From IMG/VR virus record IMGVR_UViG_3300028840_006907, positions 1 to 64,000 of that record: a stretch of 64,000 bases of DNA. The stretch is one strand, 5' to 3'. The position numbers and the translations under genes were made by a program. Shown here piece after piece: positions 13,541-64,000 of the stretch. Position 1 is the stretch's first letter. Every line of letters starts with the position of its first letter. Under the pieces are notes generated by a model that saw only the letters and a list, made by a program, of their open reading frames with translations, had not been told where the DNA came from and searched no databases. The DNA comes from a virus.

Positions 13541-13556
13541 AATTCCTCCACAATAT

Positions 13557-13571: not shown

Positions 13572-13698
13572 TTAAAGAGATTCCAGGTTTTTCTTGGGGC
13601 AGAAGTCTATTTTCTTTTATATCAAACCTTTACAAGAGAAAAAATTAAATTAATAATCTTTTGATATTATTGCCTTTGTTTACAAAGAAAGGGTTATA

Positions 13699-14712: not shown

Positions 14713-14935
14713 CTTTTTTATCTGCAAAACCTTCTACTTTGTAATGAACTAGAACTCGTGCAAGTTGTGTCGCGCTAACGATTTCAAATGTTAGATTTGC
14801 ATCTTTAATTTTATTCCACACTCTTTGCATTGCAGCACATTCTTCTTCATTTGGTTCTTCAGGAATAAAAAAGTATCCTTTTTGTTTTTTTCTTTTCCAC
14901 CAGAAAAATAAATCTAATAACCACATAATAACCAT
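14696..14935 (-). CDS. hypothetical protein
   Basis: 79-aa ORF, convergent overlap with 13699-14712. Confidence 0.35.
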   Translation of the reverse strand: MVIMWLLDLFFWWKRKKQKGYFFIPEEPNEEECAAMQRVWNKIKDANLTFEIVSATQLARVLVHYKVEGFADKKVTPVD

Positions 14936-14952
14936 CCTATATCAAAAAAAGA

Positions 14953-15168
14953 TCATTTAATGGTTATTATATCATTCGTGCTTTTTTGGTTCAAGAAATA
15001 AAGATTAATTTCTAACATTAAAAGTTCTGTACCATCACAGTAACCTTTCCACCATTCTTCGTATTCTTTTGTTCCTATATCATATAAGCATTCTTTAAAT
15101 GGTTCGTTTAATTTTTTGGTGGATGTGATAAGTCCTTTACGATACGGAGTAAGTGTAGATAAATCCAT
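14953..15168 (-). CDS. hypothetical protein
   Basis: 71-aa ORF. Confidence 0.4.
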   Translation of the reverse strand: MDLSTLTPYRKGLITSTKKLNEPFKECLYDIGTKEYEEWWKGYCDGTELLMLEINLYFLNQKSTNDIITIK

Positions 15169-15269
15169 ATGAAATCTCCTTGGAATGATTTGTGTGTAAA
15201 ATAAAAAAGGGACACTCTGAGAAAGCGCCCCTTTTTAACTTGAAGGAATTTGTGAATATATCAGATCAT

Positions 15270-17330: not shown

Positions 17331-17497
17331 AAAAGTAACTCCTTTAATTTTAATGTGTATGATCCATATTACTTAACCTCAATATTTCGAGGACATTACA
17401 AAATCTTAATAAATTATACCCAGAAAATTTCAAATAAACAAGATTAAAGTTTTAGCATTTACTTGTGAGAAAGTTATTGGTAGGTACTCCTAAATGT

Positions 17498-17528
17498 CAA
17501 GGGCACCAGGAAGTAGCCAGTGCCCTTG
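17498..17528. promoter_or_regulatory. perfect 9-bp inverted repeat with 13-nt spacer
   Basis: caagggcac...gtgcccttg in the 310-bp gap upstream of the PKD gene start. Confidence 0.3.
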
Positions 17529-17639
17529 AAGTCATCATTAATCATCAGTGGAGTAAAGTATTGTTTATATTTCATTATATTTTTATGGGAAGGAATTTAC
17601 AAGAAAAATTTTGAATATAAAGTAACATGGAATGGATAA

Positions 17640-18146
17640 TTATTTTTTATTGTTTTTGATTTTTAATAGATTCATTTTTGTTTTAAGTGTTTTTTCATTA
17701 ATCGATAATGCAGTCGCAACTTTTCCAGCAGTTTTAAATTGATGAAATAAAGCTTCAATGATAACTTTTTCTTGTTCATCTGTGACATTTACATGTATCC
17801 CTAATTTCTTGATTCGAGCACGGACTGAAGACACACTGGTCTTTAATGCTTTTGCAGTATTTTGAATGTTATATTTATTCTTTTTCAGAATATTCTCAAA
17901 CCATTCTTTTCTTTTCTCAGGATCTTTTGGTTCTCCTTCCAGGTAACCATAATCGTTATCAATTCCTAAACGTTTCATTTGTTCATAAATAGTTTGGGGG
18001 GATTTACCCAGTGCTTCTGCAACTTTCTTACCGTTACCATATTGATTTAAAAGGGCTAAAAGAATAACTTTTTTCTTTTTATCTTCTTTTTGAATACGTT
18101 CTTTAAAACGTTTTTTCTTTACTTTTGAATCTAATTTGGTTGTCAT
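17640..18146 (-). CDS. DNA-binding protein with three tandem Fis-type-like HTH motifs
   Basis: KVAEALGKSPQTIYEQMKRLGI, NTAKALKTSVSSVRARIKKLGI, KVATALSINEKTLKTKMNLLKI. Confidence 0.55.
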   Translation of the reverse strand: MTTKLDSKVKKKRFKERIQKEDKKKKVILLALLNQYGNGKKVAEALGKSPQTIYEQMKRLGIDNDYGYLEGEPKDPEKRKEWFENILKKNKYNIQNTAKALKTSVSSVRARIKKLGIHVNVTDEQEKVIIEALFHQFKTAGKVATALSINEKTLKTKMNLLKIKNNKK

Positions 18147-18195
18147 TATAATTCCTTTGAAAATTGTGAATAAATATTTAATTTACAAATTTAAA

Positions 18196-18519
18196 TTATT
18201 GAATTAATTTTGTAGCCATCTCATAATAGATTTTGTCCATTTTAGGACATTGTCTTTCCATTTTCTTTAACCAGTCAATAACTGAATCGCTCTCTTCAAT
18301 TGGTGGTACAGTTTCAATAATTTTAAAAAACTTTTTGAAAATTCCAGTACCACATGTCTCATAGTAACCACTATTACCATAATCAGGATAAACTTGGTAA
18401 TATGGTCTACCATTTTTATCTTTCTCTTTATATTCACAGAAATAATGTTCTCCTAAAGAATAACCTTCCAATCCATTCCTGGCCATAGGAGCTTCGATAC
18501 ATAGACATAATTGAAACAT
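18196..18519 (-). CDS. hypothetical protein
   Basis: 107-aa ORF downstream of NAD-binding gene. Confidence 0.45.
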   Translation of the reverse strand: MFQLCLCIEAPMARNGLEGYSLGEHYFCEYKEKDKNGRPYYQVYPDYGNSGYYETCGTGIFKKFFKIIETVPPIEESDSVIDWLKKMERQCPKMDKIYYEMATKLIQ

Positions 18520-18539
18520 CTATTACCATCCTTTCATTT

Positions 18540-19607
18540 TTATGGTTTAAATTCTTTATCTATGGCATATTTAATCAATCCAGAGAAATGTTCCAAAACA
18601 TCTGGATATTGAATTGAATTAAATATTTCATGGGATAAATTAGAATTATATTTTTGATTATCTACAGTAATATAAGGAGCGAAAGTTTTACCTACAGTTC
18701 TGTAATATAATTTTTCAAATTTATTTAAATTATTTGGAAATTTATCAACAAATTCAAATTCCTTTACATTTAGCATATTTAAAATAACGGAAAAGTATTC
18801 TTTATGTAATGGAGGATTTGGGTTTATTATATTAAGTTCTGTAAAATCTTCATTGATAGATTTACATATGATTTTAGCAACATAATCTACAGGAACAATA
18901 TTAAGAGTTTCATTTAAATTAATGTGGATTCTAATTGGCATATCCATTTTATATCTATAAAAAAAGTATGCCCAACCATAGAATACATCAAATTTTAAAG
19001 TAATATATAAAGGGAAATCAATTAAACGACCACAGATAACTGAAGGTCGTAATATCTGATAATGAATATTATATTTTTTACAATAACTTGATATATATGT
19101 TTCCATAGTTGATTTAGTTTCTTCATAGGGATTTCTATAAATATTTTTAATTCTATTTACAAATGCTGTACTTATATAAATAAATTTATAAAGTTTTTTA
19201 CTATCGATATTATTTATCAAATTTATAGTTCCCAAATTATTATTTAATAAAAGTTCTTGTTCTGTAGCTTTATCTGTCATTAAATTTGTTGAAGCGGCAC
19301 AATGTATTACTGTCAATTTCTTAGTATCAATATTAGAAATTATATGAAATAATTCTTTACAATTTAAATGACATGGGATAATTTGAAACCTTTCTTTAAG
19401 TATATTTATTGAATATTTCTTTATGAATTCTGGAATATTTTCTGGAGCAAAAATATTTATGCCTCTTTCTATAGGAGTCATATTATTAAAAGGTCTAATT
19501 AATAAAAAAAGTTTAGATGATGAATTATATCTAATAATTTTTTCAAGCAATTCAAAAAAGATATGACTACCTAATAGACCTGTAACGCCTGTAATTAAAT
19601 AATCCAT
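18540..19607 (-). CDS. NAD(P)-binding epimerase/thioester-reductase-like protein
   Basis: N-terminal ITGVTGLLGSH Rossmann motif, YISTAFV, YEETK (YxxxK). Confidence 0.55.
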   Translation of the reverse strand: MDYLITGVTGLLGSHIFFELLEKIIRYNSSSKLFLLIRPFNNMTPIERGINIFAPENIPEFIKKYSINILKERFQIIPCHLNCKELFHIISNIDTKKLTVIHCAASTNLMTDKATEQELLLNNNLGTINLINNIDSKKLYKFIYISTAFVNRIKNIYRNPYEETKSTMETYISSYCKKYNIHYQILRPSVICGRLIDFPLYITLKFDVFYGWAYFFYRYKMDMPIRIHINLNETLNIVPVDYVAKIICKSINEDFTELNIINPNPPLHKEYFSVILNMLNVKEFEFVDKFPNNLNKFEKLYYRTVGKTFAPYITVDNQKYNSNLSHEIFNSIQYPDVLEHFSGLIKYAIDKEFKP

Positions 19608-19651
19608 ATTGAATCCTTTTTAATGGTTATGTGCGATATTGATTTTTTTAT

Positions 19652-19999
19652 TTACGATTTTTCCATTTCTTTTTTCCAAGTATATGTGATATATGAATAA
19701 TCAATATCTTTAAGTAATTTGATTTTCTCTACAGCATTTTCAATATCTGGAATTGATCCTGTTATAAAAAATCTTTTTATTGAAATATTTTCCTCATCAC
19801 AATATCCTGGATTAGAAAAGATAAGGGATAATTTCTCGGTTTTAATTTCTGGTTCTTCTGAAGAATCTTTATTTATTGTATTAAAAATTTCTTCCTCAGA
19901 TAATGAGTTATTTTCGGATAATTCTGATTTTATAAATTGAATAAAACTCTCTGTATTTACATCAAATAATTTGAACATACATTCAGGTAAATTAGGCAA
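19652..19999 (-). CDS. hypothetical protein
   Basis: 115-aa ORF. Confidence 0.45.
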   Translation of the reverse strand: MPNLPECMFKLFDVNTESFIQFIKSELSENNSLSEEEIFNTINKDSSEEPEIKTEKLSLIFSNPGYCDEENISIKRFFITGSIPDIENAVEKIKLLKDIDYSYITYTWKKEMEKS

Positions 20000-20018
20000 A
20001 ATTTTTATCCTTTATTGA

Positions 20019-20222
20019 TTAATCTTCTACAGTGACAGTGGCTTCAGCTCCGCAGGTACAGCATGTCCAAGTGTTATCTGGATTAGGGAATGCAACGGTC
20101 TCAACTGATTCATCGACAACTTCAAGAAAATTACCTGTTTCATCTACTTTCCAGTCCTGGGAGACATGGGCAACAGTTTCAAATGTTTTATGATCCGGGT
20201 TATTGGGACATATAGCTTTCAT
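20019..20222 (-). CDS. hypothetical protein
   Basis: Start moved to internal ATG abutting upstream stop. Confidence 0.4.
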   Translation of the reverse strand: MKAICPNNPDHKTFETVAHVSQDWKVDETGNFLEVVDESVETVAFPNPDNTWTCCTCGAEATVTVED

Positions 20223-20223
20223 A

Positions 20224-20526
20224 TTAAAAATCCTCTCCGAAAATGTATTTGTGATCCCAAGTACTAAGAACGATACCTTTATAATGTGTTTCTTTTTTCT
20301 TGTAATCAACAAAATATTTTTCAATTAAATGTTTATCTGTAAAGTAAAATACTTGTTTAAAATTTTCAGATGCAATGGCAATCAATTGACCAATCTTATT
20401 GAAAACAAGAAGATCATTCTCGTTAAGTGGAAAGAGAATGATCTCATCGTAATCATTTAAACATTGCATATTCCGTACACCTGCTTTGCGTTCAGGAAAT
20501 ATTATTTCAGTTATTTTCTTTGTCAT
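20224..20526 (-). CDS. hypothetical protein
   Basis: 100-aa ORF. Confidence 0.45.
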   Translation of the reverse strand: MTKKITEIIFPERKAGVRNMQCLNDYDEIILFPLNENDLLVFNKIGQLIAIASENFKQVFYFTDKHLIEKYFVDYKKKETHYKGIVLSTWDHKYIFGEDF

Positions 20527-20529
20527 AAA

Positions 20530-20772
20530 TTACTCCCTTTTAAAAATATCAGCGACAAGCGTTCCACCGTGTTTAAGTATTTGAATTGCACTAACAATAA
20601 TAATTGTTAAGATGAGAGGTGCTCCGACCATTACAATCAGTGGACCTAGAATCTTAAAAGTTTTTAACATATACTCCGCATCTTCTGCGGGAGTCGTTGA
20701 CCAGGTTCTTGAAGCATATATCTGTGCTACAAAAGCGAGACATAAGATAAGTAAAAAGACTTTTTGTTTCAT
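20530..20772 (-). CDS. small secreted/membrane protein
   Basis: Signal-like N-terminus MKQKVFLLILCLAFVAQIYA plus second hydrophobic helix. Confidence 0.45.
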   Translation of the reverse strand: MKQKVFLLILCLAFVAQIYASRTWSTTPAEDAEYMLKTFKILGPLIVMVGAPLILTIIIVSAIQILKHGGTLVADIFKRE

Positions 20773-33689: not shown

Positions 33690-33872
33690 TCAGTCCTCTG
33701 GCTGAAATGTTAAGATTAAATTCTCAATCTTTATTCCAAAGCTCCGTACCTTGTCCAATAAGGTCGGGAAATTATCCACTATAATAATTCTCGGTTTATC
33801 CTTAATAATCCCAAAAGCACTTATTGCCTTATCTGAATAATGAAGATTAATCTGTAATTCAATTTTATTCAT
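33690..33872 (-). CDS. small conserved protein, paralog of 35047-35238
   Basis: Shared DKPRIIIV(D/R)(N/D)FP...VR..GIK(I/L)E(N/D)L core. Confidence 0.55.
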   Translation of the reverse strand: MNKIELQINLHYSDKAISAFGIIKDKPRIIIVDNFPTLLDKVRSFGIKIENLILTFQPED

Positions 33873-35046: not shown

Positions 35047-35238
35047 TTATTTACTCCTTGTTAAATCCTCAAGCTTTATCCCCAATCCACGTACCTGTTT
35101 AAATAACTCCGGGAAATCTCTCACTATTATAATCCTCGGCTTATCCTCAATCAGCCCATAAGCACTTAGCTTATCTGAACTATATCCTAAATTAACCTGT
35201 AACGATACTTTATCCATATTCTTACCTCCATATAACAT
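35047..35238 (-). CDS. small conserved protein, paralog of 33690-33872
   Basis: About half the residues identical to 33690-33872 product. Confidence 0.55.
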   Translation of the reverse strand: MLYGGKNMDKVSLQVNLGYSSDKLSAYGLIEDKPRIIIVRDFPELFKQVRGLGIKLEDLTRSK

Positions 35239-51572: not shown

Positions 51573-51940
51573 CATGAATAATGAAAAAAGTTTAGTAACT
51601 TTCCGAAGTTTTAAGAAACTTTTTCTTTGACGTTTGTTTTTTGTGGCTTTCATGAGTAATGAAAAAAGTTTAGTAACTTTCCGAAGTTTTAAAAATTTTT
51701 TCTTTCATGTAAACTTTTCCTTGTCTACATGAGTAATGAAAAAAGTTTAGTAACTTTCCGAAGTTTTAAAAATTTTTTCTTTCATGTAAACTTTTCCTTG
51801 TCTACATGAGTAATGAAATTAGTTTGGTAACTTTCCGAAGTTTTAAAAATTTTTTCTTTCATGTAAACTTTTCCTTGTCTACATGAGTAATGAAATTAGT
51901 TTGGTAACTTTCCGGAAAAAATTGTAAAAACGCTATTTTC
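51573..51940. repeat. 77-bp tandem direct repeats, about 4.4 copies
   Basis: Units begin at 51573 (degenerate), 51651, 51728, 51805, 51882 (partial). Confidence 0.95.
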
Positions 51941-52312: not shown

Positions 52313-52370
52313 TGGCGCATATCCTGTTATAGTGGCGCATATTCTATTATAATGGCGCATATTTCAGTTC
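52313..52370. repeat. three direct GTGGCGCATAT boxes at about 20-bp spacing
   Basis: gtggcgcatatcctgttata / gtggcgcatattctattata / atggcgcatatttcagttca. Confidence 0.9.
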
Positions 52371-52397: not shown

Positions 52398-52628
52398 CAG
52401 GGAACAGGGAACTGAGCACAGGGAACTGAGCACAGGGAACCGAGCACAGGGAACCGAGCACAGGGAACTGAGCACAGGGAACTGAGCACAGGGAACTGAG
52501 CACAGGGAACCGAGCACAGGGAACCGAGCACAGGGAACTGAGCACAGGGAACCGAGCACAGGGAACTGAGAACAGGGAACCGAGCACAGGGAACTGAGAA
52601 CAGGGAACTGAGAACAGGGAACCGAGCA
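52398..52628. repeat. 14-bp tandem repeat array, 16 copies, GC-rich
   Basis: CAGGGAAC(T/C)GAGCA with T/C and C/A variants; partial copy then units from 52405. Confidence 0.95.
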
Positions 52629-52872
52629 CCTGTATCTGTGATCTCGGAAAAGTTTCGGGAAAAAAATCGGGAACGGCTCAGGGCTGAGAAATAGGTATGA
52701 ATTTTTTTGGGGTATAATTTTTGGAGTTAAACAGTTGGGGAAATTGGAGTTATCTTATGTGAGGTGATGGGATAGTTTATGGAGGGTGAAAATTTTTTGG
52801 TATAGTTTGATGGAGAAACAGGTATAATACTTATAGGACGGAAAAATTTAAGTCTAATGGTTCGAGGATCTT

Positions 52873-53064
52873 GTGAAGAAGAACACAAAGCGTAAATTAA
52901 ATAAATTGATAGCATTTTGCAAGGATGAGGGGATGGACATAAGTGCGGATGGTGGTTTAATTTATGTCACGGTAGGAAATGGTCGGATGAATGAGGAGGT
53001 TTGGTGTGAGAAGGCTATCAGTGGTTTTTCGGAGGTTGGTGATTTTGGTTTTAACGAGGATTAA
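52873..53064 (+). CDS. hypothetical protein, first gene of rightward array
   Basis: 63-aa ORF; GGTATAAT box about 40 nt upstream. Confidence 0.45.
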   Translation: MKKNTKRKLNKLIAFCKDEGMDISADGGLIYVTVGNGRMNEEVWCEKAISGFSEVGDFGFNED

Positions 53065-53095
53065 AACCTATTAACATTAAACAATTGAGGTAGTT

Positions 53096-53815
53096 ATGAA
53101 CAATAAGATGTATTTAAACAGTTTTATAGATGCATTGAAGGTTTTATCAGTAGGGACTCTTGATAATTATAAGGAGGAGTTTACTGTGGGATTACCTTTG
53201 GACCCGGAGATATTTAAGGAGGTCATACGGAATGGAGTTATGGCTATTCGTGATGGGTCTCATTTTTTTCTTCGTGACATTAAGAAGGTTCGGATTAGGG
53301 ATATGCCGAATGAGTTGCATGAGATTCCAGATCTTTTCACGATATCTTATAAGGCTGATGTTTTTAATGATGAGTTAGTGAAGGAGGATGTTGAGGCTCA
53401 TACTTTGGTGGTTCGTAGATTATCAGATTTGGCATATTCTGTTGTATTGTGGGCATCTCAGGATTTGGAGGTATGGCAACCTATACCTATTTATAATGTT
53501 GTAAATTTTGATGCTGACTTTAATGTTGAAGATGGGGCGTTGCCTTATAGTTATTGGGCGCATGAGTGTTTTTTAAATGGTCAGGGTGATATGATGATTC
53601 GCCAATTACCGTTTGAGAAATTGAATGAAGATCAGGTTGAATATTTAAATCAAACTTATTTATTCCCGATTTTATTTGAGTTATTTCTTGGATTTTGGAA
53701 CAAGTATCCCAGGCTTAGCTTTAAGGATCAGGTTTTACGAAATCGGACGTTGGTACATGATGAGGAGGGTGATGTTTTTTCATTGGATTGGATAAAATAC
53801 AAGGAGATAGTATGA
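53096..53815 (+). CDS. hypothetical protein
   Basis: 239-aa ORF. Confidence 0.55.
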   Translation: MNNKMYLNSFIDALKVLSVGTLDNYKEEFTVGLPLDPEIFKEVIRNGVMAIRDGSHFFLRDIKKVRIRDMPNELHEIPDLFTISYKADVFNDELVKEDVEAHTLVVRRLSDLAYSVVLWASQDLEVWQPIPIYNVVNFDADFNVEDGALPYSYWAHECFLNGQGDMMIRQLPFEKLNEDQVEYLNQTYLFPILFELFLGFWNKYPRLSFKDQVLRNRTLVHDEEGDVFSLDWIKYKEIV

Positions 53816-54702
53816 AAAATTTACGTGAGATGAAAGATATCCCGGAGGTCATGTATCGGAAGTCGCGTGAAGCGATTTGGTATGACATGAGTCAAGGGGG
53901 GGAATTATTTAATCGGTGTTATGTTTGTGGTCATCATAAGGATGATATGGAGACGTGTACTCATTTTATAAGGGGTATTGAGAATGAGATAGATATTAAG
54001 GAAGTGGCGTCTTGGTTTAATCAACCACCTGAGGTCATAGAGGACCGCGTGATTAATAACACGTTTATTTTACCGTATAATGCAACAAAGGGAGTTGAAT
54101 ATTTACCGGTGAAATATCATGGTGAAAATATAGCGGTATTTCCGATTTGTGGTGGGTGTCAGGCACTTATGCGTATACCTTTTGCAACTGAAGCAGATGT
54201 AATCAAAATGAAGGAGATGAACATGGATAGAGCGATAATAATGACAGGTAAGGCGGTAGAAACTGGTGATATAAACGAGAAGAAGTGTTGTTATTTATGT
54301 GGAAGGCCGGAGGGATCTGACAGTCTTTCGGTTCCTTATAATAAGAGGACTGAGGAGACGTTATTAGCGAAAATTACCTTACGGATGGTGACCTTTAATA
54401 CATCTGAAGAGATGAATATAAAATTTAAGTATTTGGTATGCCCGGAGTGTGAGATTTTATTGGGGGTATCTCCTCGGATCTTTATGAGTCATGATGGTGG
54501 TCATTTAAATGAAGATCATGATCCGTTTGATCTTACTGAATTAAACAATGGGATTCAGGCGATTTTAAATGGCAATATTTCTCCGACATTACAGGCAAAG
54601 GTTTTGGAATACATAAAGGCAGCGGGTCCTGAGTTTTTCATTAATGAGATTTTAACTATTACCAGTAAGAAGAGGAAGAGGAAGAAGAAAAATGGCAAAT
54701 AA
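53788..54702 (+). CDS. Cys-rich protein with several CxxC pairs
   Basis: CYVCGHH, CGGCQ, CCYLCG, CPECE; true start possibly an internal Met near 53812. Confidence 0.5.
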   Translation: MDKIQGDSMKNLREMKDIPEVMYRKSREAIWYDMSQGGELFNRCYVCGHHKDDMETCTHFIRGIENEIDIKEVASWFNQPPEVIEDRVINNTFILPYNATKGVEYLPVKYHGENIAVFPICGGCQALMRIPFATEADVIKMKEMNMDRAIIMTGKAVETGDINEKKCCYLCGRPEGSDSLSVPYNKRTEETLLAKITLRMVTFNTSEEMNIKFKYLVCPECEILLGVSPRIFMSHDGGHLNEDHDPFDLTELNNGIQAILNGNISPTLQAKVLEYIKAAGPEFFINEILTITSKKRKRKKKNGK

Positions 54703-54919
54703 ATTACAATCGGAAGAGAACACGGTATCTTTTACAGATTGTATCAGGGTTGAAGTTCGTGGAGAGTTAGCGGGATCATTTATGGAGTATTGTTTAAAGA
54801 ATAAGATTTATTCGATGAGAGCTGGGATGTCTGGTCCTGGCATTCATATTGGATTTTATTTGTTGGAGCACCGGGCCAAGATAGAGTCATTTTTTGATGG
54901 AGTCATAGATGAAGAATGA
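54692..54919 (+). CDS. hypothetical protein
   Basis: 75-aa ORF. Confidence 0.45.
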   Translation: MANKLQSEENTVSFTDCIRVEVRGELAGSFMEYCLKNKIYSMRAGMSGPGIHIGFYLLEHRAKIESFFDGVIDEE

Positions 54920-55160
54920 GCGGACTCGTATACTTCTATTATATAAGCCTGAGCAGAAGCTTCTTAAGACGGTTTTGCGGACGATACATGAGATTCGGGA
55001 GGTTTACGGGTATTATTATGTGGGCTGGTTTGTTTATGATCGTTTTGATCATTTTTGTTTTCGTTCAAAGAATGCGACTACGTGGATTGAGCTTTATGGC
55101 TGGAGTCCTTTGATCGTGGCTTGGAAGCGATACAACTTTAACAAGCGGAGGTACTTATGA
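54909..55160 (+). CDS. hypothetical protein
   Basis: 83-aa ORF. Confidence 0.45.
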   Translation: MKNERTRILLLYKPEQKLLKTVLRTIHEIREVYGYYYVGWFVYDRFDHFCFRSKNATTWIELYGWSPLIVAWKRYNFNKRRYL

Positions 55161-55354
55161 ACGCATCAACATCTATTAAATTGGATAAATTTTTAGAATA
55201 TTGTCGTGAGAATGGGATTCGGTTGAGTGCAGTTGGTCAGATTTTTCTCAATGTTGATGGTGATATCATTTTTACTCCCTATGGCAAGATCACCGAAGAG
55301 ACAGTGGTGGATGATTTTCAGAATGAGAAGTTTATTGGTAATTATACAATATAG
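55157..55354 (+). CDS. hypothetical protein
   Basis: 65-aa ORF, 4-nt overlap. Confidence 0.45.
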   Translation: MNASTSIKLDKFLEYCRENGIRLSAVGQIFLNVDGDIIFTPYGKITEETVVDDFQNEKFIGNYTI

Positions 55355-55363
55355 GAGATTTTT

Positions 55364-55780
55364 ATGGTACCCAATACATTCACAGACGAAGAAGTTGATA
55401 TAGCCCGAAAATATGTTTTATCTCAGATTAGGAGATATAGTCGGTTTAAGAACGGGAAGAAGTTAGGGAACCCGTTTGTCTTTTATAAGGACGTTTTGGC
55501 TCAGATAGGGTATTATATAGAATCTGAGCATGACGGGGATCGTGCTGGTATACTTGCTGCGCGTATTTCAGAGGCAGAATTTTCTGAGCATGGAGTGCTT
55601 ATAGGTGCGGTTATAGTGAGTCAGGAGTATCGTCGTCCTGGTCCTGGTTTTTATGTATTTGCCGAGGAGAATGGGTTATTTAATTGTCATGGTAATGCCG
55701 ATCCGGACGGGGCTCGGGAGTTGAATTTTTGGGATCAGCATGTTACTGAAATTGTAAGACATTATGGGAGGCAGAGATAA
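55364..55780 (+). CDS. hypothetical protein
   Basis: 138-aa ORF. Confidence 0.5.
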   Translation: MVPNTFTDEEVDIARKYVLSQIRRYSRFKNGKKLGNPFVFYKDVLAQIGYYIESEHDGDRAGILAARISEAEFSEHGVLIGAVIVSQEYRRPGPGFYVFAEENGLFNCHGNADPDGARELNFWDQHVTEIVRHYGRQR

Positions 55781-55933
55781 TGATACATTCTTATCAGGTT
55801 GGGGAGATATGTAATGATCCTTTATATGTGGACTATGCAATGAGAGGTGATATTGTTGAAGTCAGTCTTGATGAGGTAGAACTTGTACAAGCCTCTGATT
55901 CAGATGCTTTTTTATCAGAAGAGGATTTAATAA

Positions 55934-56359
55934 ATGAAAAGAGTTAAATGTCGTTCAGATAAAGTGACTGTTTTTCCTGTTACTGGAGGTCATTATCAAC
56001 AAAGGATTGAGGAAGTAACAATTGGAAATGTTTATGAAGTGATTAGGGTTGTTCGTGATGATTATTATGAAATCCTTCCTGATGAGGGATTCCAAACCAA
56101 AGTGCTTCCTGATTACATGTTTGAGTCAACCAATGAACCGGTTACCATTAACCCGGATCGGGAGAAGAATGAAAAGAAGAGACAGGAACGATTAGAGAAG
56201 GAGCGAAAGGAACGGGAAGCTCAGAGAATTCGCGAGGAGATTCAAGATAGAGCATTAGCATATTATAATCCGGTTGCATGGTATAAAAAACAGAAAGCGA
56301 AAAAGCGCTTATCAGATGCTCTTTCTCAGATTTTTACCTCTGGTTTACCTTATGGATAA
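55934..56359 (+). CDS. hypothetical protein with charged coiled-coil-like segment
   Basis: EKNEKKRQERLEKERKEREAQRIREE. Confidence 0.5.
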   Translation: MKRVKCRSDKVTVFPVTGGHYQQRIEEVTIGNVYEVIRVVRDDYYEILPDEGFQTKVLPDYMFESTNEPVTINPDREKNEKKRQERLEKERKEREAQRIREEIQDRALAYYNPVAWYKKQKAKKRLSDALSQIFTSGLPYG

Positions 56360-56370
56360 AGGAGATAAGC

Positions 56371-56694
56371 ATGGTTGAAAAATCATGGGAAGAAATAGAA
56401 GGAAGAGACTGGACTGCTATACAGATAAAAGATGCTCAAAAAAAGCATAATGATGGCATAATAGAAAACATAGTTATGAAATTTGATAAGCCAGAGACAG
56501 CGAATGGTTTCAATAGATGGTTACAATTTTGCGGGGAATTTAAAATAACTGTAGAAGACATTACTCCTGCAGATGTCCGTCTTGTATGGTATGGCCCGAA
56601 TTTGAATAACATCACATTTATGACTGAGAAGAATTCTCAAAAGTACATTAATGAAAAGACGAGATTGATTTTAATAAAGGATATTGAAAGATGA
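56371..56694 (+). CDS. hypothetical protein
   Basis: 107-aa ORF. Confidence 0.5.
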   Translation: MVEKSWEEIEGRDWTAIQIKDAQKKHNDGIIENIVMKFDKPETANGFNRWLQFCGEFKITVEDITPADVRLVWYGPNLNNITFMTEKNSQKYINEKTRLILIKDIER

Positions 56695-56939
56695 TCACAC
56701 GCATTGGATTGGATGCTGCGATCAGCATGATCGATAAGGATATCCCCGAGGCCCTGGAGCCTTACTGGGCTACTGTGAAGCAATTTATAGATGAGTTGCC
56801 AGAAGATACCTTAATCCAGTTGCTTCAATCTATTGCTAATCAGATAAATACTAGGGGTAATTGTCTGATAATTCAGCAGGAAGAAGATTTACGAGTAGTA
56901 AAAGATATTGATTTAGTATTATTTAAAGATTTAAAATAG
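56691..56939 (+). CDS. small protein, tandem paralog A
   Basis: Shares I.E.LE.YW.TV...DDLPE.TL..L..SIA core with next gene. Confidence 0.5.
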   Translation: MITRIGLDAAISMIDKDIPEALEPYWATVKQFIDELPEDTLIQLLQSIANQINTRGNCLIIQQEEDLRVVKDIDLVLFKDLK

Positions 56940-56949
56940 GAGCGGTAGT

Positions 56950-57195
56950 ATGAAAGTTAAACGTTCTGATTTAACAAAAGCTATACGTGAACTTGATGAA
57001 AAAATACCTAGTGAATTAGAATCTTATTGGAAAACAGTCAGATTAGCCCTAGATGATTTACCAGAAGAAACTTTATGTAATTTGTTTGGATCTATTGCCA
57101 GAGAACTGGGTTTAAAAAATCAATGTCTTCTGATTCGTAAAGGGGATGATATTGGTATAGTTACAAAATTTAAAGCGATAAGGATACCTGATTAA
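56950..57195 (+). CDS. small protein, tandem paralog B
   Basis: Same length and motif spacing as 56691-56939 product. Confidence 0.5.
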   Translation: MKVKRSDLTKAIRELDEKIPSELESYWKTVRLALDDLPEETLCNLFGSIARELGLKNQCLLIRKGDDIGIVTKFKAIRIPD

Positions 57196-57197
57196 TT

Positions 57198-57545
57198 ATG
57201 AGACAGATAAAATTGGCTTCAAATGATAATGATATTACAGCTAAATTAAAAATGACTATAAATTCTAAAATACACCAATTACATGTATTATTGAGTAAAA
57301 ATATAGAACTTGGTAATCTCTTGGAATTAAAAGATGAAGCCTCCGATAATGATTATATCGAATTCGGTGATATAATGTTGAGACAAAGGTTACTCTTGGC
57401 AGAAATAGATTCTTTAATGATTTCTTTAAAACAGATGATTATGATGATTTCAAAAAATAAAAGAGTACAAATAGAGTGGGATGAAATTTCAGAGGAAGAT
57501 TTAAAAGCTGTACGAGATAGTTATTTCCATAAAATAATGGAGTAA
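57198..57545 (+). CDS. hypothetical protein
   Basis: 115-aa ORF. Confidence 0.45.
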   Translation: MRQIKLASNDNDITAKLKMTINSKIHQLHVLLSKNIELGNLLELKDEASDNDYIEFGDIMLRQRLLLAEIDSLMISLKQMIMMISKNKRVQIEWDEISEEDLKAVRDSYFHKIME

Positions 57546-57547
57546 TA

Positions 57548-57829
57548 ATGAATCAAGAGTTTTCAGAGACACCAGTTTCCATTGAGATAGAATTTGATTT
57601 GGATAGATTCAAAATTGATCCGGAAAAAAGTGTGAGGTATACTTTTCATTTTAAAGGCAGTGATGAGTTAAATTCGATAGAAGAAGCTGATATAAAAAGT
57701 TTACATAGTCTATACGCATGTTCTAGTGCTGTTACTATTATGCTTAAAAAATGTATAGATTCTTATTATCATTATATGAATAAAGCTGGAGAAGAAATTA
57801 ACACAATAGTAGAAGAGGGAAAAAAGTGA
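57548..57829 (+). CDS. hypothetical protein
   Basis: 93-aa ORF. Confidence 0.45.
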   Translation: MNQEFSETPVSIEIEFDLDRFKIDPEKSVRYTFHFKGSDELNSIEEADIKSLHSLYACSSAVTIMLKKCIDSYYHYMNKAGEEINTIVEEGKK

Positions 57830-58215
57830 AACAATTAATCCTAAATGAAGGAGATGGTGTAACAACGGTAATTCTAAAAGCAATGATAAATTCATCAATG
57901 GCTGAACTGGATTATTATGAAAACACTGCTTCGAAGATGAATATAGAGAATTGGGATGTTACCGTAGATGTTGAGAGAATCCAAGTTAAAATTGATTCTT
58001 TGGTTAGAATGTTACAAGTACATTTAAAGAAGATCTATTTGACATGGGAAGAAATTGATACTAAAGATCTGGTTATAAAAGATTGGAAAGTATGGAGTTC
58101 AAAGAATAATAAAAATACTTGTTTTGGATCAAAACCAGGTTCCCAGGCTCAGGCAGAGAATGGTTGTGAAAATTGTTGGGATCAGAATGAATGCTTTTCT
58201 AATATAGAAAAATAA
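57826..58215 (+). CDS. hypothetical protein
   Basis: 129-aa ORF, 4-nt overlap. Confidence 0.5.
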   Translation: MKQLILNEGDGVTTVILKAMINSSMAELDYYENTASKMNIENWDVTVDVERIQVKIDSLVRMLQVHLKKIYLTWEEIDTKDLVIKDWKVWSSKNNKNTCFGSKPGSQAQAENGCENCWDQNECFSNIEK

Positions 58216-58389
58216 TATGATTTCAAGATGGAATGTGTTTTTTAACGTGATACTCATCCAGATAATTATGTTATTTGTTACTGAGGCAAAGGAAGGTTTA
58301 CATTTAGTTCGATATTTATCATTTGCCGTTATAGATGTGTTACTTCTCATCTACGCATTAATAGGTTATAGGAAATCAAAAGAAAAATA

Positions 58390-58833
58390 GTGAGGGAAAG
58401 AATGTCATTTTTAGAACCTGAAGATGTTGTTGATCAATTAAAGATTTATAAAAGAGATAGTAGTGATATAGTTCTTTTAAAAGCCATGATAAATAAAGAA
58501 GTGGCTAAATTATTTGTTTTAAATCAAACAAGTGAAGTTATTTTGGAAGATATTCTGAAAATGGATTCAGGATCTGTTCCTGTTTTTTCAATTGAAAAAG
58601 TCACTGAGATGGGACTTGATTATTGTATCTCGGTTGCAAAGATAATTTCTTTAATAAATTCTTTGATACAATCTGGTCATGATGTTCTGGAGTGGGAAGA
58701 AGTGAGTCTATATAAGATAGGTAAAATAGACGGTTTAAAAATATTGGAAAAATTAAGCAATAATATGGACAAATTAAATGAAGCAATGAAAAGTTTTAAG
58801 ATGGATGAGGATTCTTCCGAGGATATAAATTGA
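58390..58833 (+). CDS. hypothetical protein
   Basis: 147-aa ORF. Confidence 0.5.
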   Translation: MRERMSFLEPEDVVDQLKIYKRDSSDIVLLKAMINKEVAKLFVLNQTSEVILEDILKMDSGSVPVFSIEKVTEMGLDYCISVAKIISLINSLIQSGHDVLEWEEVSLYKIGKIDGLKILEKLSNNMDKLNEAMKSFKMDEDSSEDIN

Positions 58834-59198
58834 TGGATTTTTTATTCGAAAAATCAAGGAAAGTCCCTAAGCATAGATGCACGAAATGTTTTAAAGAGAT
58901 GGATCATCTGACAGGAGATGGTATACCTACTGTTGGAAGTCTTATTGCCTGTATAAATTGTGGCCATATTATGATGATTGGAGAATCTTTTAAAATGCTT
59001 GAGGTAGATATACCTCAATTAGCAAGAGAATCAGATATCAAAGATTATTGTAAAATATGTCTTGCTAGTAAAGTTCTTGCTAATGTATTTCACAAAAGAA
59101 ATGGATATTATGCTTCTACCATTTTTGAGGATATTGAAAAACATTGTCCAGGAGGTTGCCATTGGATTGAAGGTACTGGCCAAGGTTTGTATAATTGA
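58830..59198 (+). CDS. zinc-ribbon-like protein
   Basis: CTKCF...CINCGH and CKIC...CPGGCH. Confidence 0.5.
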   Translation: MMDFLFEKSRKVPKHRCTKCFKEMDHLTGDGIPTVGSLIACINCGHIMMIGESFKMLEVDIPQLARESDIKDYCKICLASKVLANVFHKRNGYYASTIFEDIEKHCPGGCHWIEGTGQGLYN

Positions 59199-59250
59199 TT
59201 TTTAGAAATAACTATTGAAGAAATAAAAGATATTTTAGAAAAATTATAAT

Positions 59251-59757
59251 ATGGATCAAATAATAACAGAAATAGCAGAAGTAGCCAAGCAGAATTTAAT
59301 TAAACATGGAAGTTTGGCTCCGGTAGTATTACCTCATAAAAATGGTGTGATTGTACCACAATTAGTAATGAATCTGAGATTTGAAAATGATGAACAGAAA
59401 TACAAAGCATTTGTAATGATTGGAATAACTGCTCAGAAATTTTTTAAAAATGGCTTTATTGACAGAATAGTTCTTGTAATAGAAGGTGCTATGAAAGCTT
59501 ATGATGAGCATACAAGCGAATTGGTAAAAAGAAATCCTGAGCTTTATGCCCCTTTAACATATCCAGAGAGTCAGCGCCAAGAAATCATAATTATTAATGA
59601 CTTTGATTTGATAAAAAAGACGGATTGTTTTTATAGTATAGAATTCAAGAAAAACGGGACTAGCTTTACATTTAAACAATTAGAAAAATATGGATCGATG
59701 CCAGGAGGCATGCGGGATAAATTTTACCTTGGATTAAATTATGAAAAAAATCTATAA
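59251..59757 (+). CDS. hypothetical protein
   Basis: 168-aa ORF. Confidence 0.5.
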   Translation: MDQIITEIAEVAKQNLIKHGSLAPVVLPHKNGVIVPQLVMNLRFENDEQKYKAFVMIGITAQKFFKNGFIDRIVLVIEGAMKAYDEHTSELVKRNPELYAPLTYPESQRQEIIIINDFDLIKKTDCFYSIEFKKNGTSFTFKQLEKYGSMPGGMRDKFYLGLNYEKNL

Positions 59758-60082
59758 ATATTTTATATCTTTTTTTGTTGTGTTATCAACAATATCTATC
59801 GTAATATTGTATATCATTGTTTTTAATTGCTTGAAACATGAAAGATATTATCCTTATAGTTATTTCCATTCCCTAAAACATTATCGTTATAAACCTTTTG
59901 ATTATAATAAATATTATGCCATAACATTTACAGGTTCTCTGGAAAATCAAGATAGTTGCTATGTTTTAAAGAATAACAATCTTATAAAAGCTCGTTTTTA
60001 TAATTCGCCACAATTAGATCTATTAAATATAAAAGACAGTTCAAAAGTAGAAGTAATTATACAAGGAGTAATGGAAGAATGA
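59741..60082 (+). CDS. membrane protein
   Basis: Helix FISFFVVLSTISIVILYIIVF. Confidence 0.45.
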   Translation: MKKIYKYFISFFVVLSTISIVILYIIVFNCLKHERYYPYSYFHSLKHYRYKPFDYNKYYAITFTGSLENQDSCYVLKNNNLIKARFYNSPQLDLLNIKDSSKVEVIIQGVMEE

Positions 60083-60351
60083 AAGACAAAGAATATAATT
60101 TAAATCTTAAAGCTGGGTTCAAAATAGGTAATAATAAAATATGTGGCAAAAGAACTAAATATAGATCTGAAGAAACAGCTCGTAAGGCACTTTTCATGAG
60201 ATTAGAGAGGAAAAAAAGTCAAAATTTTTTAGGATATTACCCATGTGTATTCTGTGGAGGATGGCATATCGGTTTGAAAATGTTTATGAAATCATTAATA
60301 AAATATGAGAAGATAGAACTTCCAAAAGAAAAAGTAGATATGTTGAGATAA
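60079..60351 (+). CDS. hypothetical basic protein
   Basis: 90-aa ORF, 4-nt overlap. Confidence 0.45.
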   Translation: MKDKEYNLNLKAGFKIGNNKICGKRTKYRSEETARKALFMRLERKKSQNFLGYYPCVFCGGWHIGLKMFMKSLIKYEKIELPKEKVDMLR

Positions 60352-60747
60352 AGTTTTTTAGAGGTATTTAATATGGCATTAGAAGTATTATCTATACCGG
60401 AAGAACAATTACTTGAAGTAGTTATGGTCATTCGTGCAGGCTTGCAAGTCGTTGATGTTTCACGTGAAACATCAGATTACTTAATAAATTGGTGTAAAGA
60501 AGAAGAGGAGTATCTAAATGGGTGATTTGAAAGGAAAAGTAGAATGCCCCGTTTGCGGAGAAGAAGTGGATTTAGATGATTCGGAAAAAGCAGTAGCCCA
60601 TATGTCAAAAAGATGAAGCTCATAAAAATCATTTGGATAGGGCTCGAATTAATCATCTGATGGAGATGTTTACTGGATCTGGAATTATAAGGAAGGTCTG
60701 AATAGTTATAAAAATTATTAATTTAGTTAAAAAGAAGGAGTAAAAAA

Positions 60748-61041
60748 GTGCAGACAGATAATTTATTCTGTGATTTAAGAGAAGATGATGAATACTTTCC
60801 TATTGGATGTAATACAAGTCCGATAGCTCTAATATGGATAGAGAAAGGGGAAATTCAAACAAAGTATATGCAAGGTTGGTGTAAAAGTCGTTCCCGAATG
60901 GTAGCTGAAAATATAAGAGAATTACGAGATAAAAAGATCCCTTTTAAAATTATAGGTACATGGAGTGGTGAGTATAGCTCGAATATGTTTAATCTTAATC
61001 CTGAGAGAATTGAAAAGCTTTTGGAACTTCATGGTAATTAA
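60748..61041 (+). CDS. hypothetical protein
   Basis: 97-aa ORF. Confidence 0.45.
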   Translation: MQTDNLFCDLREDDEYFPIGCNTSPIALIWIEKGEIQTKYMQGWCKSRSRMVAENIRELRDKKIPFKIIGTWSGEYSSNMFNLNPERIEKLLELHGN

Positions 61042-61045
61042 TACA

Positions 61046-61498
61046 ATGCTTGTTGAAGAAAAAATCATAGAGGTTTTGGATTTAGATGAATGTCATGTTC
61101 TTTTGGAGAATTTCAAGAGTGAGATTTTTTGCCATTATAATGTGCCAGAAGATTTCAGTACCAGAATTTTAGTAAATGTCCTTAAGAAGATCGGGTTTGA
61201 AAATCAAGTTAACCGTCTCGATGCTACTCTTGATATGTGTCATTTAGAATATTCTGAGGATGGGGATTTCTATAAGAAAATTGTAAAGCATGCAGTTTAT
61301 TTATTTCAATTGTTTATAATTTGGGATAGGCAAGAAGAATTATGTGAAATAGAAATACCTACCCAAAGCCTGATCGATGATCTGCCCGAATTACCGCTGG
61401 TGAAATTTAAAGAAGATGGAAATGCAGAATGTCAGATTGAGTTAATGGTTCAAGTTAGGGAATTTATGAGATCGATGGTAATTAAGGATTGGGTATAA
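61046..61498 (+). CDS. hypothetical protein
   Basis: Start moved to ATG just after upstream stop (MLVEEKIIEV). Confidence 0.45.
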   Translation: MLVEEKIIEVLDLDECHVLLENFKSEIFCHYNVPEDFSTRILVNVLKKIGFENQVNRLDATLDMCHLEYSEDGDFYKKIVKHAVYLFQLFIIWDRQEELCEIEIPTQSLIDDLPELPLVKFKEDGNAECQIELMVQVREFMRSMVIKDWV

Positions 61499-61510
61499 GG
61501 TTCCGTTTTT

Positions 61511-61732
61511 ATGGGTAGTTGTAGGTATAAATATGTTTTAGATCCAGATATTACCCAAATGAATATTTGGGATGATATAAAAAGGCGCATTGAGAGAGAA
61601 AAATTGGTACAGGCTTTAAAAAATGGTGATGATAAAACTATACAAAGATTGATGCCTGATAAAGACCTACAGGAAATGCTGAAACAATTTCATGATGCTT
61701 GGATAAGCAGATTCCCGGAAGATGACATCTGA
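61511..61732 (+). CDS. hypothetical protein
   Basis: 73-aa ORF. Confidence 0.45.
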   Translation: MGSCRYKYVLDPDITQMNIWDDIKRRIEREKLVQALKNGDDKTIQRLMPDKDLQEMLKQFHDAWISRFPEDDI

Positions 61733-62109
61733 TGGCGAGTAGATACGAAATATTATTAAGACAAGAGGATCCCTTTTATGGGAAATGCCCTAAGGGTGGG
61801 AACCATGAATGGGGAACTGATGGACAGCATTCAAATCAATATTGTAAGAAATGTTTTTTAAATAGACCAGAACCACCGAAACTTGAGGATAAATACATAA
61901 CTGAAAATAATAAGACTATAAGTTTATTTAGTGAAAAAAAGTGCTTTGATGGCCAGGATCATGTGTGGGGTATTGATGGTGCTCATTCAAATGTTTATTG
62001 TAAAAAATGCTTTATGAGTAAACCTGAAGATACCCCTGCAGATCCGTATGAAGATGAAGTTGATTTAAAGAAGAAAAAGGAGTTTGATATAACAGATTTG
62101 AATGGCTAA
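61732..62109 (+). CDS. protein with two tandem zinc-ribbon-like repeats
   Basis: CPKGGNHEWGTDGQHSNQYCKKCF and CFDGQDHVWGIDGAHSNVYCKKCF. Confidence 0.5.
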   Translation: MASRYEILLRQEDPFYGKCPKGGNHEWGTDGQHSNQYCKKCFLNRPEPPKLEDKYITENNKTISLFSEKKCFDGQDHVWGIDGAHSNVYCKKCFMSKPEDTPADPYEDEVDLKKKKEFDITDLNG

Positions 62110-62812
62110 TGGAGGGAAAGTGACTAAAGATAAAAATGTTTCAAAATATAAAATAACCGATCCAGAATTTTGGATTAATGAAAAAGGGGATCATCCGACT
62201 CCTAGAACGATGATAACTGTTAATCATGTACAAAGAGGTATTTGGAAACCTGCTGATAGTATTATCAGTGTAGAAAGTGTTTTAAAATATCTGAAAAGTT
62301 TAGCAGAAGTGAAAGATGAAATCCCTATGGAGGATGACGGATCTGATAGAATTTCTGTAGCATTGACATGTTCAAGAATGTTAAATTTTGAGAATAATTC
62401 CAAAGAAGAAGTTGAACCTTTTCTTAGATTAGATCTCCCAATAGTTTCAGTTAAAGCACCCTTGGCTCTTTTTGGAAACATTGAATATGAAGAACATAAA
62501 CTTTCTAAAATGATTATAGAAATGGCTCAGAAAGTTCATATCGATGTTGAAAAAAAATATGTGGAGATTGGGGGTTTAAAAGGGCTTTATGGTAACATGA
62601 ATTTGGTAGAATATACTCAAAATAATGAAAATGAATTATCAGAAGTTTTTTTTGGAAGATGGCTTGAATGTCAATCTATAATTTTTGAATTCAGTATTCT
62701 TAATTTTAATGATGATAATTTATTTACTATTCGAGGTCTTTGGTTAGTAGACCATTGGGATTTTATAGACGTTTTTACTTCTCCAATATTTAATATCATG
62801 ATAAAAGAGTAA
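62102..62812 (+). CDS. hypothetical protein
   Basis: 236-aa ORF. Confidence 0.5.
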   Translation: MANGGKVTKDKNVSKYKITDPEFWINEKGDHPTPRTMITVNHVQRGIWKPADSIISVESVLKYLKSLAEVKDEIPMEDDGSDRISVALTCSRMLNFENNSKEEVEPFLRLDLPIVSVKAPLALFGNIEYEEHKLSKMIIEMAQKVHIDVEKKYVEIGGLKGLYGNMNLVEYTQNNENELSEVFFGRWLECQSIIFEFSILNFNDDNLFTIRGLWLVDHWDFIDVFTSPIFNIMIKE

Positions 62813-62816
62813 TAGA

Positions 62817-63362
62817 ATGGTGAAAAAAGAAGAAGTAGTTAAGTTACTTGAAGAACGGGGCTATGGAAGATTTAATGAAGAGTCCTGGATATTGGGATTT
62901 GCAGAACTTCGATCAATATGTGAGATCCAAGCGCATCTAACTGAAACCAAATATGCTGGTACCGATGAATCCGATTCTTGGAGAATACAAATAATGTATG
63001 AATTTGAGAAGGGGATCTTCGTTATGAGCCAGCGCAATATAGTTGAAAACGGAGTCCTTTTACGTGATGAATTTATAGAATGGGATACCAATTTAAGGCT
63101 TTTTATCGAGAGGTTCAGAATACTATCTCCCAATCAATTAATATTTGTGGGACCTGAGAAGGAACCTATGATCCTAAATCCAGGAGAACATGTTAATGAT
63201 ATTCATCCAATAACCGGTTTATGCACTAAGTTAACTCCTCTTTATGGTAGTTGGTTGAAATTGTTAAGGAGTGATTTGGATGAACTGGAAGAATTAGTCA
63301 AATTGTTAAAAAAAGCTAAGATAGAATTAAAACCATTAGTAGAAGATCTTACCAATGAATAA
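62817..63362 (+). CDS. hypothetical protein
   Basis: 181-aa ORF. Confidence 0.5.
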   Translation: MVKKEEVVKLLEERGYGRFNEESWILGFAELRSICEIQAHLTETKYAGTDESDSWRIQIMYEFEKGIFVMSQRNIVENGVLLRDEFIEWDTNLRLFIERFRILSPNQLIFVGPEKEPMILNPGEHVNDIHPITGLCTKLTPLYGSWLKLLRSDLDELEELVKLLKKAKIELKPLVEDLTNE

Positions 63363-63372
63363 GGAGTATGTA

Positions 63373-63552
63373 TGGATGAAATGATTAGTTGCCCACGCTG
63401 TGATGGGGATCCTGGAGCAATTTTGGATGGTGGTCATCCATGTTTTATGTGTAATGGTACTGGAAAAGTCAGAGGTAAGGATTTTACTTTTCATCCTGAT
63501 TACAGAGAACCTGAAAGAGACAAAGAAGAATGATATTCAGATTTATACGTAA
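63373..63552 (+). CDS. small zinc-finger protein (below ORF-track cutoff)
   Basis: CPRCDG...CFMCNGTGKV (CxxCxGxG-like); AAGGAG upstream of ATG. Confidence 0.35.
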
Positions 63553-63838
63553 ATCGTTTTGGACGTTTATTATGATTATAGCCTTTCCAATTGATTACGT
63601 TGGATGGAATTTAATATATGGTGGCACATTTGGCTATAGACCATTAAAACAATGTGTCAAAGATGGATTAAAACAATTAGAAGAATATAAAAGAAAGATA
63701 GATAAATTTTGAAAGAATTTTGGTTAAAAGTACTAGCTGCTTTCATAGGTAATGCTATTGGTGCCCCTTTAGCAATTTTATTTATTTGGCTAATTATAAA
63801 ATTCACAAATTTATAATCATAGAGAAGGAACCCTTATA

Positions 63839-64000
63839 ATGGAACAAGAGATGTTACATGGAATTAATATCATGGAATTCGGGAATACTATTCAGATAGC
63901 TGGTATTATCATGAATAGCGATAGTATGTCTTATTTGATCCCGTTGCCCGATGATGATATCTTGGAAGCAAAGAATTTCCCACTTGATACTGATCAGTGG
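63839..64000 (+). CDS. hypothetical protein (partial, runs off window end)
   Basis: ATG at 63839 preceded by AGAAGGAA; open to window end. Confidence 0.35.
   Translation, partial: MEQEMLHGINIMEFGNTIQIAGIIMNSDSMSYLIPLPDDDILEAKNFPLDTDQW

Follow-up and report, generated by a model that had tools for sequence, protein, structure and literature searches.

The locus and the element that carries it

At the locus lie two short, co-oriented genes, here termed A and B, which are separated by a spacer of 10 nt and represent the 10th and 11th genes of an array reading rightward (Table 1). The window, i.e., the whole stretch of 64,000 nucleotides that was analysed, covers positions 1 to 64,000 of the IMG/VR virus record IMGVR_UViG_3300028840_006907. 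A sequence-only reading of this DNA had described two adjacent open reading frames of 82 and 81 amino acids, and both are present exactly where it placed them. The start codon ATG of A overlaps the stop codon TGA of an upstream gene coding for 107 amino acids (ATGA), with the motif AAGGA 9 nt upstream, and the ATG of B is preceded at a distance of 7 nt by AGGAG (positions 56938-56942). Both A and B have also been called as genes in independent assemblies.

Table 1. Features of the A/B locus and its surroundings (positions refer to the window).
Feature	Position	Strand	Remarks
77-bp tandem array, x 4.4	51573-51914		gap between leftward and rightward arrays
20-bp tandem array, x 2.5	52313-52363		gap between leftward and rightward arrays
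14-bp tandem array (ACAGGGAACTGAGC), x 16	52404-52629		gap between leftward and rightward arrays
107-aa gene upstream of A	56371-56694	+	ORF; translation apparently coupled with that of A
Gene A, 82 aa, pI 4.3	56691-56939	+	ORF; A-lineage member of the orphan family; family HMM E = 2e-41
Mosaic junction in gene A	56761-56922 (support interval)	.	best GC change-point 56824-56825; L007 homology begins at ~56831
Residual DNA repeat, copy in gene A	56788-56836	+	codes for the best-conserved core (D.LPE.TL..L..SIA) and extends up to the mosaic junction
Gene B, 81 aa, pI 7.7	56950-57195	+	ORF; B-lineage member of the orphan family
Residual DNA repeat, copy in gene B	57050-57098	+	second copy
Second paralog family, 115, 129 and 147 aa	57198-57545, 57826-58215, 58390-58833	+	directly downstream of A/B; more diverged

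On a 469,021-bp metagenome contig of ENA (ERZ27256798, k141_1708087), the window extends across the junction of the two ends, such that the part left of about 51,862 corresponds to the contig start and the part to the right to the contig end. Since the window spans both ends of this contig, the element maps as a circle of about 469 kb. Its GC content is about 32%. The stretch 52817-64000 is 100% identical to a 388,651-bp contig from the IMG metagenome 3300017963 (Ga0180437_10000019), the source of which we take to be hypersaline sediment of the Salton Sea. The principal investigator of the underlying project is D. Valentine (PMC7449369).

Pfam and PHROG scans covered about 50 of the larger ORFs. 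Recognisable genes in the window and its 20-kb flanks include an AAA ATPase (full-length match to phrog_8638, E = 2e-120), FtsK/SpoIIIE, DUF932, DUF3150, an N6/N4 DNA methylase, a PAPS-reductase-like protein, a member of the NAD-dependent epimerase/dehydratase family, a GP88-family protein, SpoVG, an HNH protein, a glycosyltransferase and a radical-SAM protein containing an intein; helix-turn-helix (HTH) matches were also among the results. Hallmarks of virions (capsid), packaging (terminase) or conjugation were not seen in the accessible ~84 kb, and IMG/VR was searched for close relatives of the AAA ATPase with no result. The extrachromosomal element can be described no more closely than as a huge phage or a megaplasmid.

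Genes left of about 51.5 kb point leftward, those right of about 53.1 kb point rightward, and the GC skew changes sign there. The gap between the two arrays is rich in repeats and may be a replication origin or control region; no Rfam family covers it, and the Rfam and tRNA scans of the window were empty altogether. The ENA assembly breaks inside the 77-bp array, and its 14-bp array is 70 bp (five units) longer than that of the window. A scan for sigma-70 promoters between 51 and 64 kb returned 50 sites versus 55.6 +/- 7.8 in shuffles and thus no excess. Terminator-like sites in the same region are in mild excess of ~2 sd (10 versus 5.6 +/- 2.1), and none of them flanks A and B or lies between the two genes.

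Paralogous genes are also found in the leftward array, where the products of 8180-8800 (-) and 7999-8202 (-) share 48% identity over 58 aa (E = 4e-13), and those of 35047-35238 (-) and 33690-33872 (-) share 58% over 52 aa (E = 4e-20). The 206-aa protein of the former pair weakly matches a sigma-factor PHROG (phrog_351, E = 1e-4). Between 34000 and 36000 the GC skew amounts to -0.435, and few ORFs of at least 70 aa are found between 34901 and 36261. Within the rightward array, a 304-aa protein (53788-54702, +) harbours several CxxC pairs and gives a sub-threshold match to the Rad50 zinc hook (E = 8e-4); proteins of 295-300 aa precede B in the related loci L002 and L004, and BLASTP detects no similarity between these and the 304-aa protein at E <= 1e-4. 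Beyond the right end of the window, the flanking locus L009 contains an HNH endonuclease (11023-11625) and, 3.5-10.5 kb past that end (13525-20546), a 1514-aa ORF without a match in phages or PDB. After this ORF come genes for a glycosyltransferase of family 2 and for a radical-SAM protein with intein/LAGLIDADG matches.

The A/B family and the age of the duplication

The products of A and B are paralogs. In BLASTP with the scoring matrix adjusted for composition, residues 2-70 of A and 3-71 of B align without a gap, yielding 28/69 identities (41%), 64% positives and E = 2e-19; with all 307 ORFs of the window (at least 45 aa) as the database, the E-value is 6.5e-17 and the pair is the strongest in the rightward array. 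The Smith-Waterman score of 152 compares with 25.4 +/- 4.6 (maximum 59) in 5000 shuffles of B (z = 27.6), and neither protein scores higher than 44 with another ORF of the window. The motif string put forward by the sequence-only reading, here rendered as IP..LE.YW.TV...LPE.TL..L..SIA...N.CL.I....D, recurs in both proteins in the same order and with the same spacing, and the significance of the pairwise alignment survives correction for composition. At the DNA level, a residual repeat of 49 nt with 76% identity is left, and synonymous sites are saturated (pS = 0.76). Homology of A and B to the neighbouring proteins of 107, 93 or 115/129/147 aa was considered as well and is ruled out by hhalign probabilities of at most 0.3%.

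Gene B and its orthologue in the related locus L007 (62% identical) show a dN/dS of 0.18 (dN 0.28, dS 1.56), and the C-terminal third of A compared with L007 gives 0.21. Given these ratios, the Shine-Dalgarno motifs and the start-stop overlap, as well as the independent gene calls, A and B are real protein-coding genes under purifying selection. AT-rich DNA produces many spurious ORFs, overlapping ones among them at this locus, and the A-B similarity might accordingly be ascribed to chance or composition, or the ORFs be denied the status of genes. Yet the distance from the shuffled scores, the composition-adjusted E-value, the conservation of orthologues at a dN/dS of ~0.2 and the gene-start signals and calls refute this notion, to which we accord next to no credence.

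The family is very small. When 1.84 billion representative proteins were searched exhaustively with an HMMER profile, only five true members emerged, the other matches being low-complexity repeat proteins, and after two word-indexed profile searches of 5.8 billion clusters the family totals 8 proteins (P0001-P0005, P0009, P0010 and P0013). These stem from five distinct sequence lineages, namely the genome of the window, L002/L003, L004/L005, L006 and L007. The relatives are represented in ERZ23498685, ERZ25073593, ERZ23498525, SRR22936137, IMG 3300041079 and ERZ23498374. None of the members carries a name, an annotation or a Pfam domain, and a cluster look-up provided neither names nor accessions. 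A and B themselves match no family in Pfam-A, PHROGs v4, NCBIfam 20 or PADLOC-DB 2, and their neighbours are likewise without a match. With all 8 members as queries, Pfam gave sub-threshold hits only (the best recurrent one being PF18328 PfaD_N in three closely related members, best E = 0.0049), every PHROG match had E >= 0.054, and no HTH family was matched even at E <= 10. No match resulted from a megablast of 54.5-60.5 kb against GenBank phages or from tblastn of B against phages and plasmids. Scans of IMG/VR, GTDB genomes and JGI metagenome contigs with back-translated family patterns found nothing, and these patterns also missed the window's own genome. Judged by these searches, the A/B family belongs to no described family and represents a new orphan family. 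Isoelectric points within the family range from 4.3 to 8.8, and net charges from -7 (A) to +2. Because of this spread, a uniformly acidic family of DNA mimics is ruled out, and a basic DNA-binder is unsupported as well.

An alignment and a distance tree separate the family into two types. The A-type C-terminal motif DLRVVK[DN]I is found in A of the window, L007 37-261 and L002 6613-6873, and the B-lineage motif D[IV]G[IV]V.[KN]F in B of the window, L007 272-517, L002 3891-4133, L004 and L006. B of the window is 62% identical to B of L007 versus only 36-41% to A of the window. The A-type copy of L002 is 40% identical to A and 41% to B of the window and is placed ambiguously in the distance tree; since it is thus equidistant from the two, the A lineage is defined mainly by the shared C-terminal motifs.

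To count copies, every ORF of the window and the related loci was scanned with the family HMM; copy numbers were judged on the window, L007 and L002/L003, each of which contains two copies, one per type. In L007 the genes stand in tandem, an A' gene (37-261) followed by B (272-517). In L002/L003 the order is reversed, with B at 3891-4133 and A at 6613-6873, 2.5 kb apart and with six genes in between. Only B is found in L004/L005 and L006, the contigs of which comprise 2 kb or less. The 107-aa gene has a homologue in L002 (6870-7241 versus 56371-56694 in the window; 62% identical, E = 3e-46), which also adjoins the A-lineage gene of L002/L003, but on the opposite side. Orthologues of these elements are only 40-60% identical. 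As both lineages occur in the window, in L007 and in L002/L003, the A-B duplication is older than the split between the elements. Both lineages have been retained, and the tandem is one of at least two arrangements. Co-retention in three related elements could reflect shared ancestry rather than functional coupling.

The surroundings of the family are more fluid. L004 and L002 share 83-90% nucleotide identity and yet differ in the small genes that flank B, which indicates gene-by-gene turnover around the family: L004 has an insertion upstream of B, namely an 87-aa homologue of the window gene at 57548-57829, and lacks an 86-aa gene that lies downstream of B in L002. The proteins of 115, 129 and 147 aa encoded directly downstream of A and B share an N-terminal motif, LK.MIN...A.L, and a C-terminal motif, (L/I).W(E/D)E(V/I). 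In hhalign comparisons, a three-sequence profile of the 147-aa protein matches the 129-aa protein with a probability of 95% (E = 4e-8) and the 115-aa protein with one of 87% (E = 4e-6). Pairwise BLASTP is only marginal, and homologues are encoded in L002 (1206-1613) and L006 (1102-1533).

The sequence-only reading had interpreted the pair as a local duplication followed by divergence, as seen for rapidly evolving host-interaction genes. In its strong form, this interpretation holds that a recent tandem duplication gave rise to copies which diverged fast under diversifying selection in an arms race. The tandem position with its short spacer, the orphan-level distribution of the family, the gain and loss of neighbouring small genes between close relatives and the second paralog family next door would all be in keeping with such a history, as would the dN/dS of 0.72 for the B genes of L002 and L004, the only close pair with such a ratio, that differs by 6 synonymous and 17 non-synonymous changes. 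Against it stand the lineages already separate in L002/L003 and L007, the identity of A and B of merely 41% with saturated synonymous sites, the dN/dS of ~0.2 in two longer orthologue comparisons, and the copies of L002, which are not in tandem. A fresh duplicate of the "genomic accordion" kind is contradicted by the closer relationship of B to its L007 counterpart than to A and by a copy number of two, which does not vary among the contigs long enough to judge. The "recent" part of the proposal is largely refuted, and a fast arms-race origin strikes us as unlikely. What stands is the paralogy itself and the setting, an array whose gene content turns over quickly between relatives, whereas the A and B orthologues are themselves constrained. 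A role of the pair in host interaction finds no direct support, since family, defence-library and structural searches were all without a match. A and B are an ordinary accessory-gene pair and not a fresh, fast-evolving duplicate.

A mosaic junction inside gene A

The base composition of the rightward array changes abruptly within gene A. A maximum-likelihood model with a single break, fitted to 53.0-60.5 kb, separates a GC content of 0.382 on the left, back to 53000, from 0.292-0.294 on the right (LR = 65), and the gain in lnL of 32.2 compares with a maximum of 16.0 among 300 block shuffles. A two-break model sets the boundaries at 56825 and about 60392, with segments of 0.38, 0.29 and 0.33, and the array accordingly consists of three GC blocks (53.0-56.8, 56.8-60.4 and 60.4-64 kb). 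The first half of A has a GC content of 0.48 and a GC3 of 0.57, and the second half of 0.27 and 0.21, respectively; the GC3 of B is 0.13.

The homology with L007 breaks at the same place. Over 56691-56830, the nucleotide identity between the window and L007 is 34%, i.e., unalignable, and over 56831-56936 it rises to 78%. For gene B, the identity is 64% when columns are counted with a gap of 17 columns immediately after the stop codon, and ~68% in the 81 ungapped codons. In the L007 gene 37-261, only the final ~33 residues of A thus remain, preceded by an N-terminus of unrelated sequence. A homologue of this N-terminus was sought in every frame and none was found, which rules out that it is a frameshifted family sequence. 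The low-GC block (about 56.83-60.4 kb) corresponds approximately to a segment that is absent from the otherwise collinear locus L002, in which the gene order is A, the 107-aa homologue and then the homologues of the window genes at 60079, 60373, 61732 and 62817; the missing segment would lie between the A/107-aa genes and the 60079 homologue.

Gene A is a recombinant, the 5' half of which belongs to the GC-richer block, and the 3' half, together with B, to the block of lower GC. A module that starts at the hairpin-coding part of A (see below) and continues with B appears to have been joined to different upstream sequences. The joint falls directly after the stretch of DNA that is most conserved in the family.

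Modular exchange, which produces mosaic genomes with junctions at gene or domain boundaries, is described for phages by the models of Botstein and Hendrix. Gene A resembles this pattern in that a compositional boundary and a homology breakpoint coincide between its predicted helical and hairpin parts, and in that L007 has the same 3' module fused to an unrelated 5' sequence. It differs from the phage models in its extent, as here there is one junction only, seen in two genomes.

Predicted structure and possible functions

AlphaFold2 models built from a six-sequence alignment reach a pLDDT of 63-67 and a pTM of 0.41-0.45. In the model of B (pLDDT 66.5, pTM 0.41), helices span residues 5-18, 21-36 and 39-56 and are followed by a beta-hairpin (60-64/67-71; hairpin pLDDT 41-55), and in that of A, helices are predicted at 4-15, 20-35 and 38-55 with a pLDDT of about 80, the C-terminus falling below 50. 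As the models are moderately confident and derive from six sequences, the tertiary fold and the hairpin are uncertain. Foldseek searches with these models returned at best E = 4.6 (B) and 4.7 (A) against PDB, and E = 0.88 with a TM of 0.38 against BFVD; a sequence-profile search of PDB yielded nothing significant (best E = 0.15). Most of the invariant columns are positions of the hydrophobic core, to which D16, T29 and C59 (numbering of B) are added, the cysteine being located at the start of the predicted hairpin, a pattern that fits a conserved scaffold with variable surfaces. Inspection revealed no signal peptide or transmembrane segment in A or B, and no enzymatic or DNA-binding family was matched in the family-library and PDB profile searches.

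A and B would then be cytoplasmic proteins of ~80 residues with three predicted helices and a short C-terminal beta-hairpin. The hairpin is conserved even where the N-terminal domain is replaced, as in L007, and yet is poorly predicted in the monomer, which is what would be expected of an oligomerisation element. In a working model that builds on this behaviour, the conserved hairpin would serve as the pairing surface, and the helical N-terminal domain would be the diverging part that binds a target. With low confidence, we regard A and B as small, non-enzymatic binding or adaptor proteins that might work as a pair and might contribute to accessory functions of the element, be it takeover, anti-defence or regulation.

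Other functions have to be weighed against this model. A and B could be small DNA-binding regulators of the array or of the nearby repeat region, which dimerise via the C-terminal hairpin in the manner of Cro or winged-helix proteins. Lambda Cro and winged-helix domains share the arrangement of three helices followed by a hairpin, and both the size (~80 aa) and the predicted order of elements in A and B are compatible with it; moreover, repeat arrays lie 4-5 kb upstream, and there is a weak PDB profile match to the 99-aa "transcriptional regulator" 2k4b (E = 0.19). In contrast to such regulators, however, A and B lack a sequence or structural match: none of the 8 members hits an HTH family at the permissive threshold given above, and Foldseek, run with the moderately confident models, brings up neither an HTH nor a winged-helix fold with a score of any weight. 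The predicted helices of 12-18 residues are longer than HTH helices, the third is hydrophobic and acidic rather than basic, and with the spread of pI values and the strongly negative charge of A, a basic DNA-contact surface is absent. We therefore hold a regulatory role of this type to be improbable. An addiction or immunity module of two genes, akin to toxin-antitoxin or effector-immunity pairs, is brought to mind by the tight spacing of two adjacent, co-oriented ~80-aa genes, one product being acidic and the other near-neutral. But A and B are homologous, unlike the partners of known modules, they match no toxin-antitoxin, defence or immunity family, and in L002 they stand 2.5 kb apart. With partners that are homologous and separable, the toxin-antitoxin interpretation fails, and we give it hardly any weight.

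Arrays of small accessory or host-takeover genes are known from large phages, e.g., the host-takeover module of SPO1, the hyperplastic regions of T4 and the pre-early genes of T5. The array in the window resembles these in that many short ORFs, closely packed or overlapping and lacking database matches, follow one another on the same strand; it begins beside a divergent, repeat-rich region, holds small paralog families and shows gene-by-gene turnover between relatives. Its genes may be expressed early. Unlike these phage arrays, the present one resides on an element that is a huge phage or a megaplasmid, with no structural or packaging genes in the part accessible, and A and B have no sequence relationship to any protein of the known modules.

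A second group for comparison are anti-defence clusters, such as phage islands with anti-CRISPR or anti-restriction-modification genes, or the leading region of conjugative plasmids. As in these, genes for small, often acidic orphan proteins share one orientation in the window, and their neighbours are quickly gained and lost. Genes coding for DUF932 and DUF3150 are common on plasmids and integrative conjugative elements, and the window carries both, in this respect too resembling anti-defence islands and plasmid leading regions. Here, however, they lie 9-50 kb from A and B on the other strand; the two proteins show no homology to a known anti-defence or defence protein, no aca-type HTH gene was detected adjoining the pair, and the charge of the family is not consistently acidic.

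Taken as a whole, the account that we favour is that of real genes from a tiny orphan family whose two lineages separated long ago, with a mosaic gene A and with products that are putative paired binders, and we consider this account probable by a small measure. A bolder version would have A and B as subunits of an undescribed heteromeric small-protein effector (e.g., for anti-defence or host takeover) of a giant element from saline sediment, with the hairpin as a portable pairing module, as exemplified by L007, and the family gene itself as a recombination joint between genome modules; this version is speculative and, in our estimate, doubtful.

The A/B pair is ordinary in kind. The main yield of the analysis is a corrected record: the pair is genuine, but it belongs to an old, conserved family of two lineages and is no fresh arms-race duplicate. 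With its 8 known members, this family enlarges the dark matter of giant mobile elements by a further set of small proteins without annotation, and gene A provides a clean, small example of a mosaic junction in the middle of a gene. Should A and B prove obligate partners that act on a defined target, a compact new module would become available for study.
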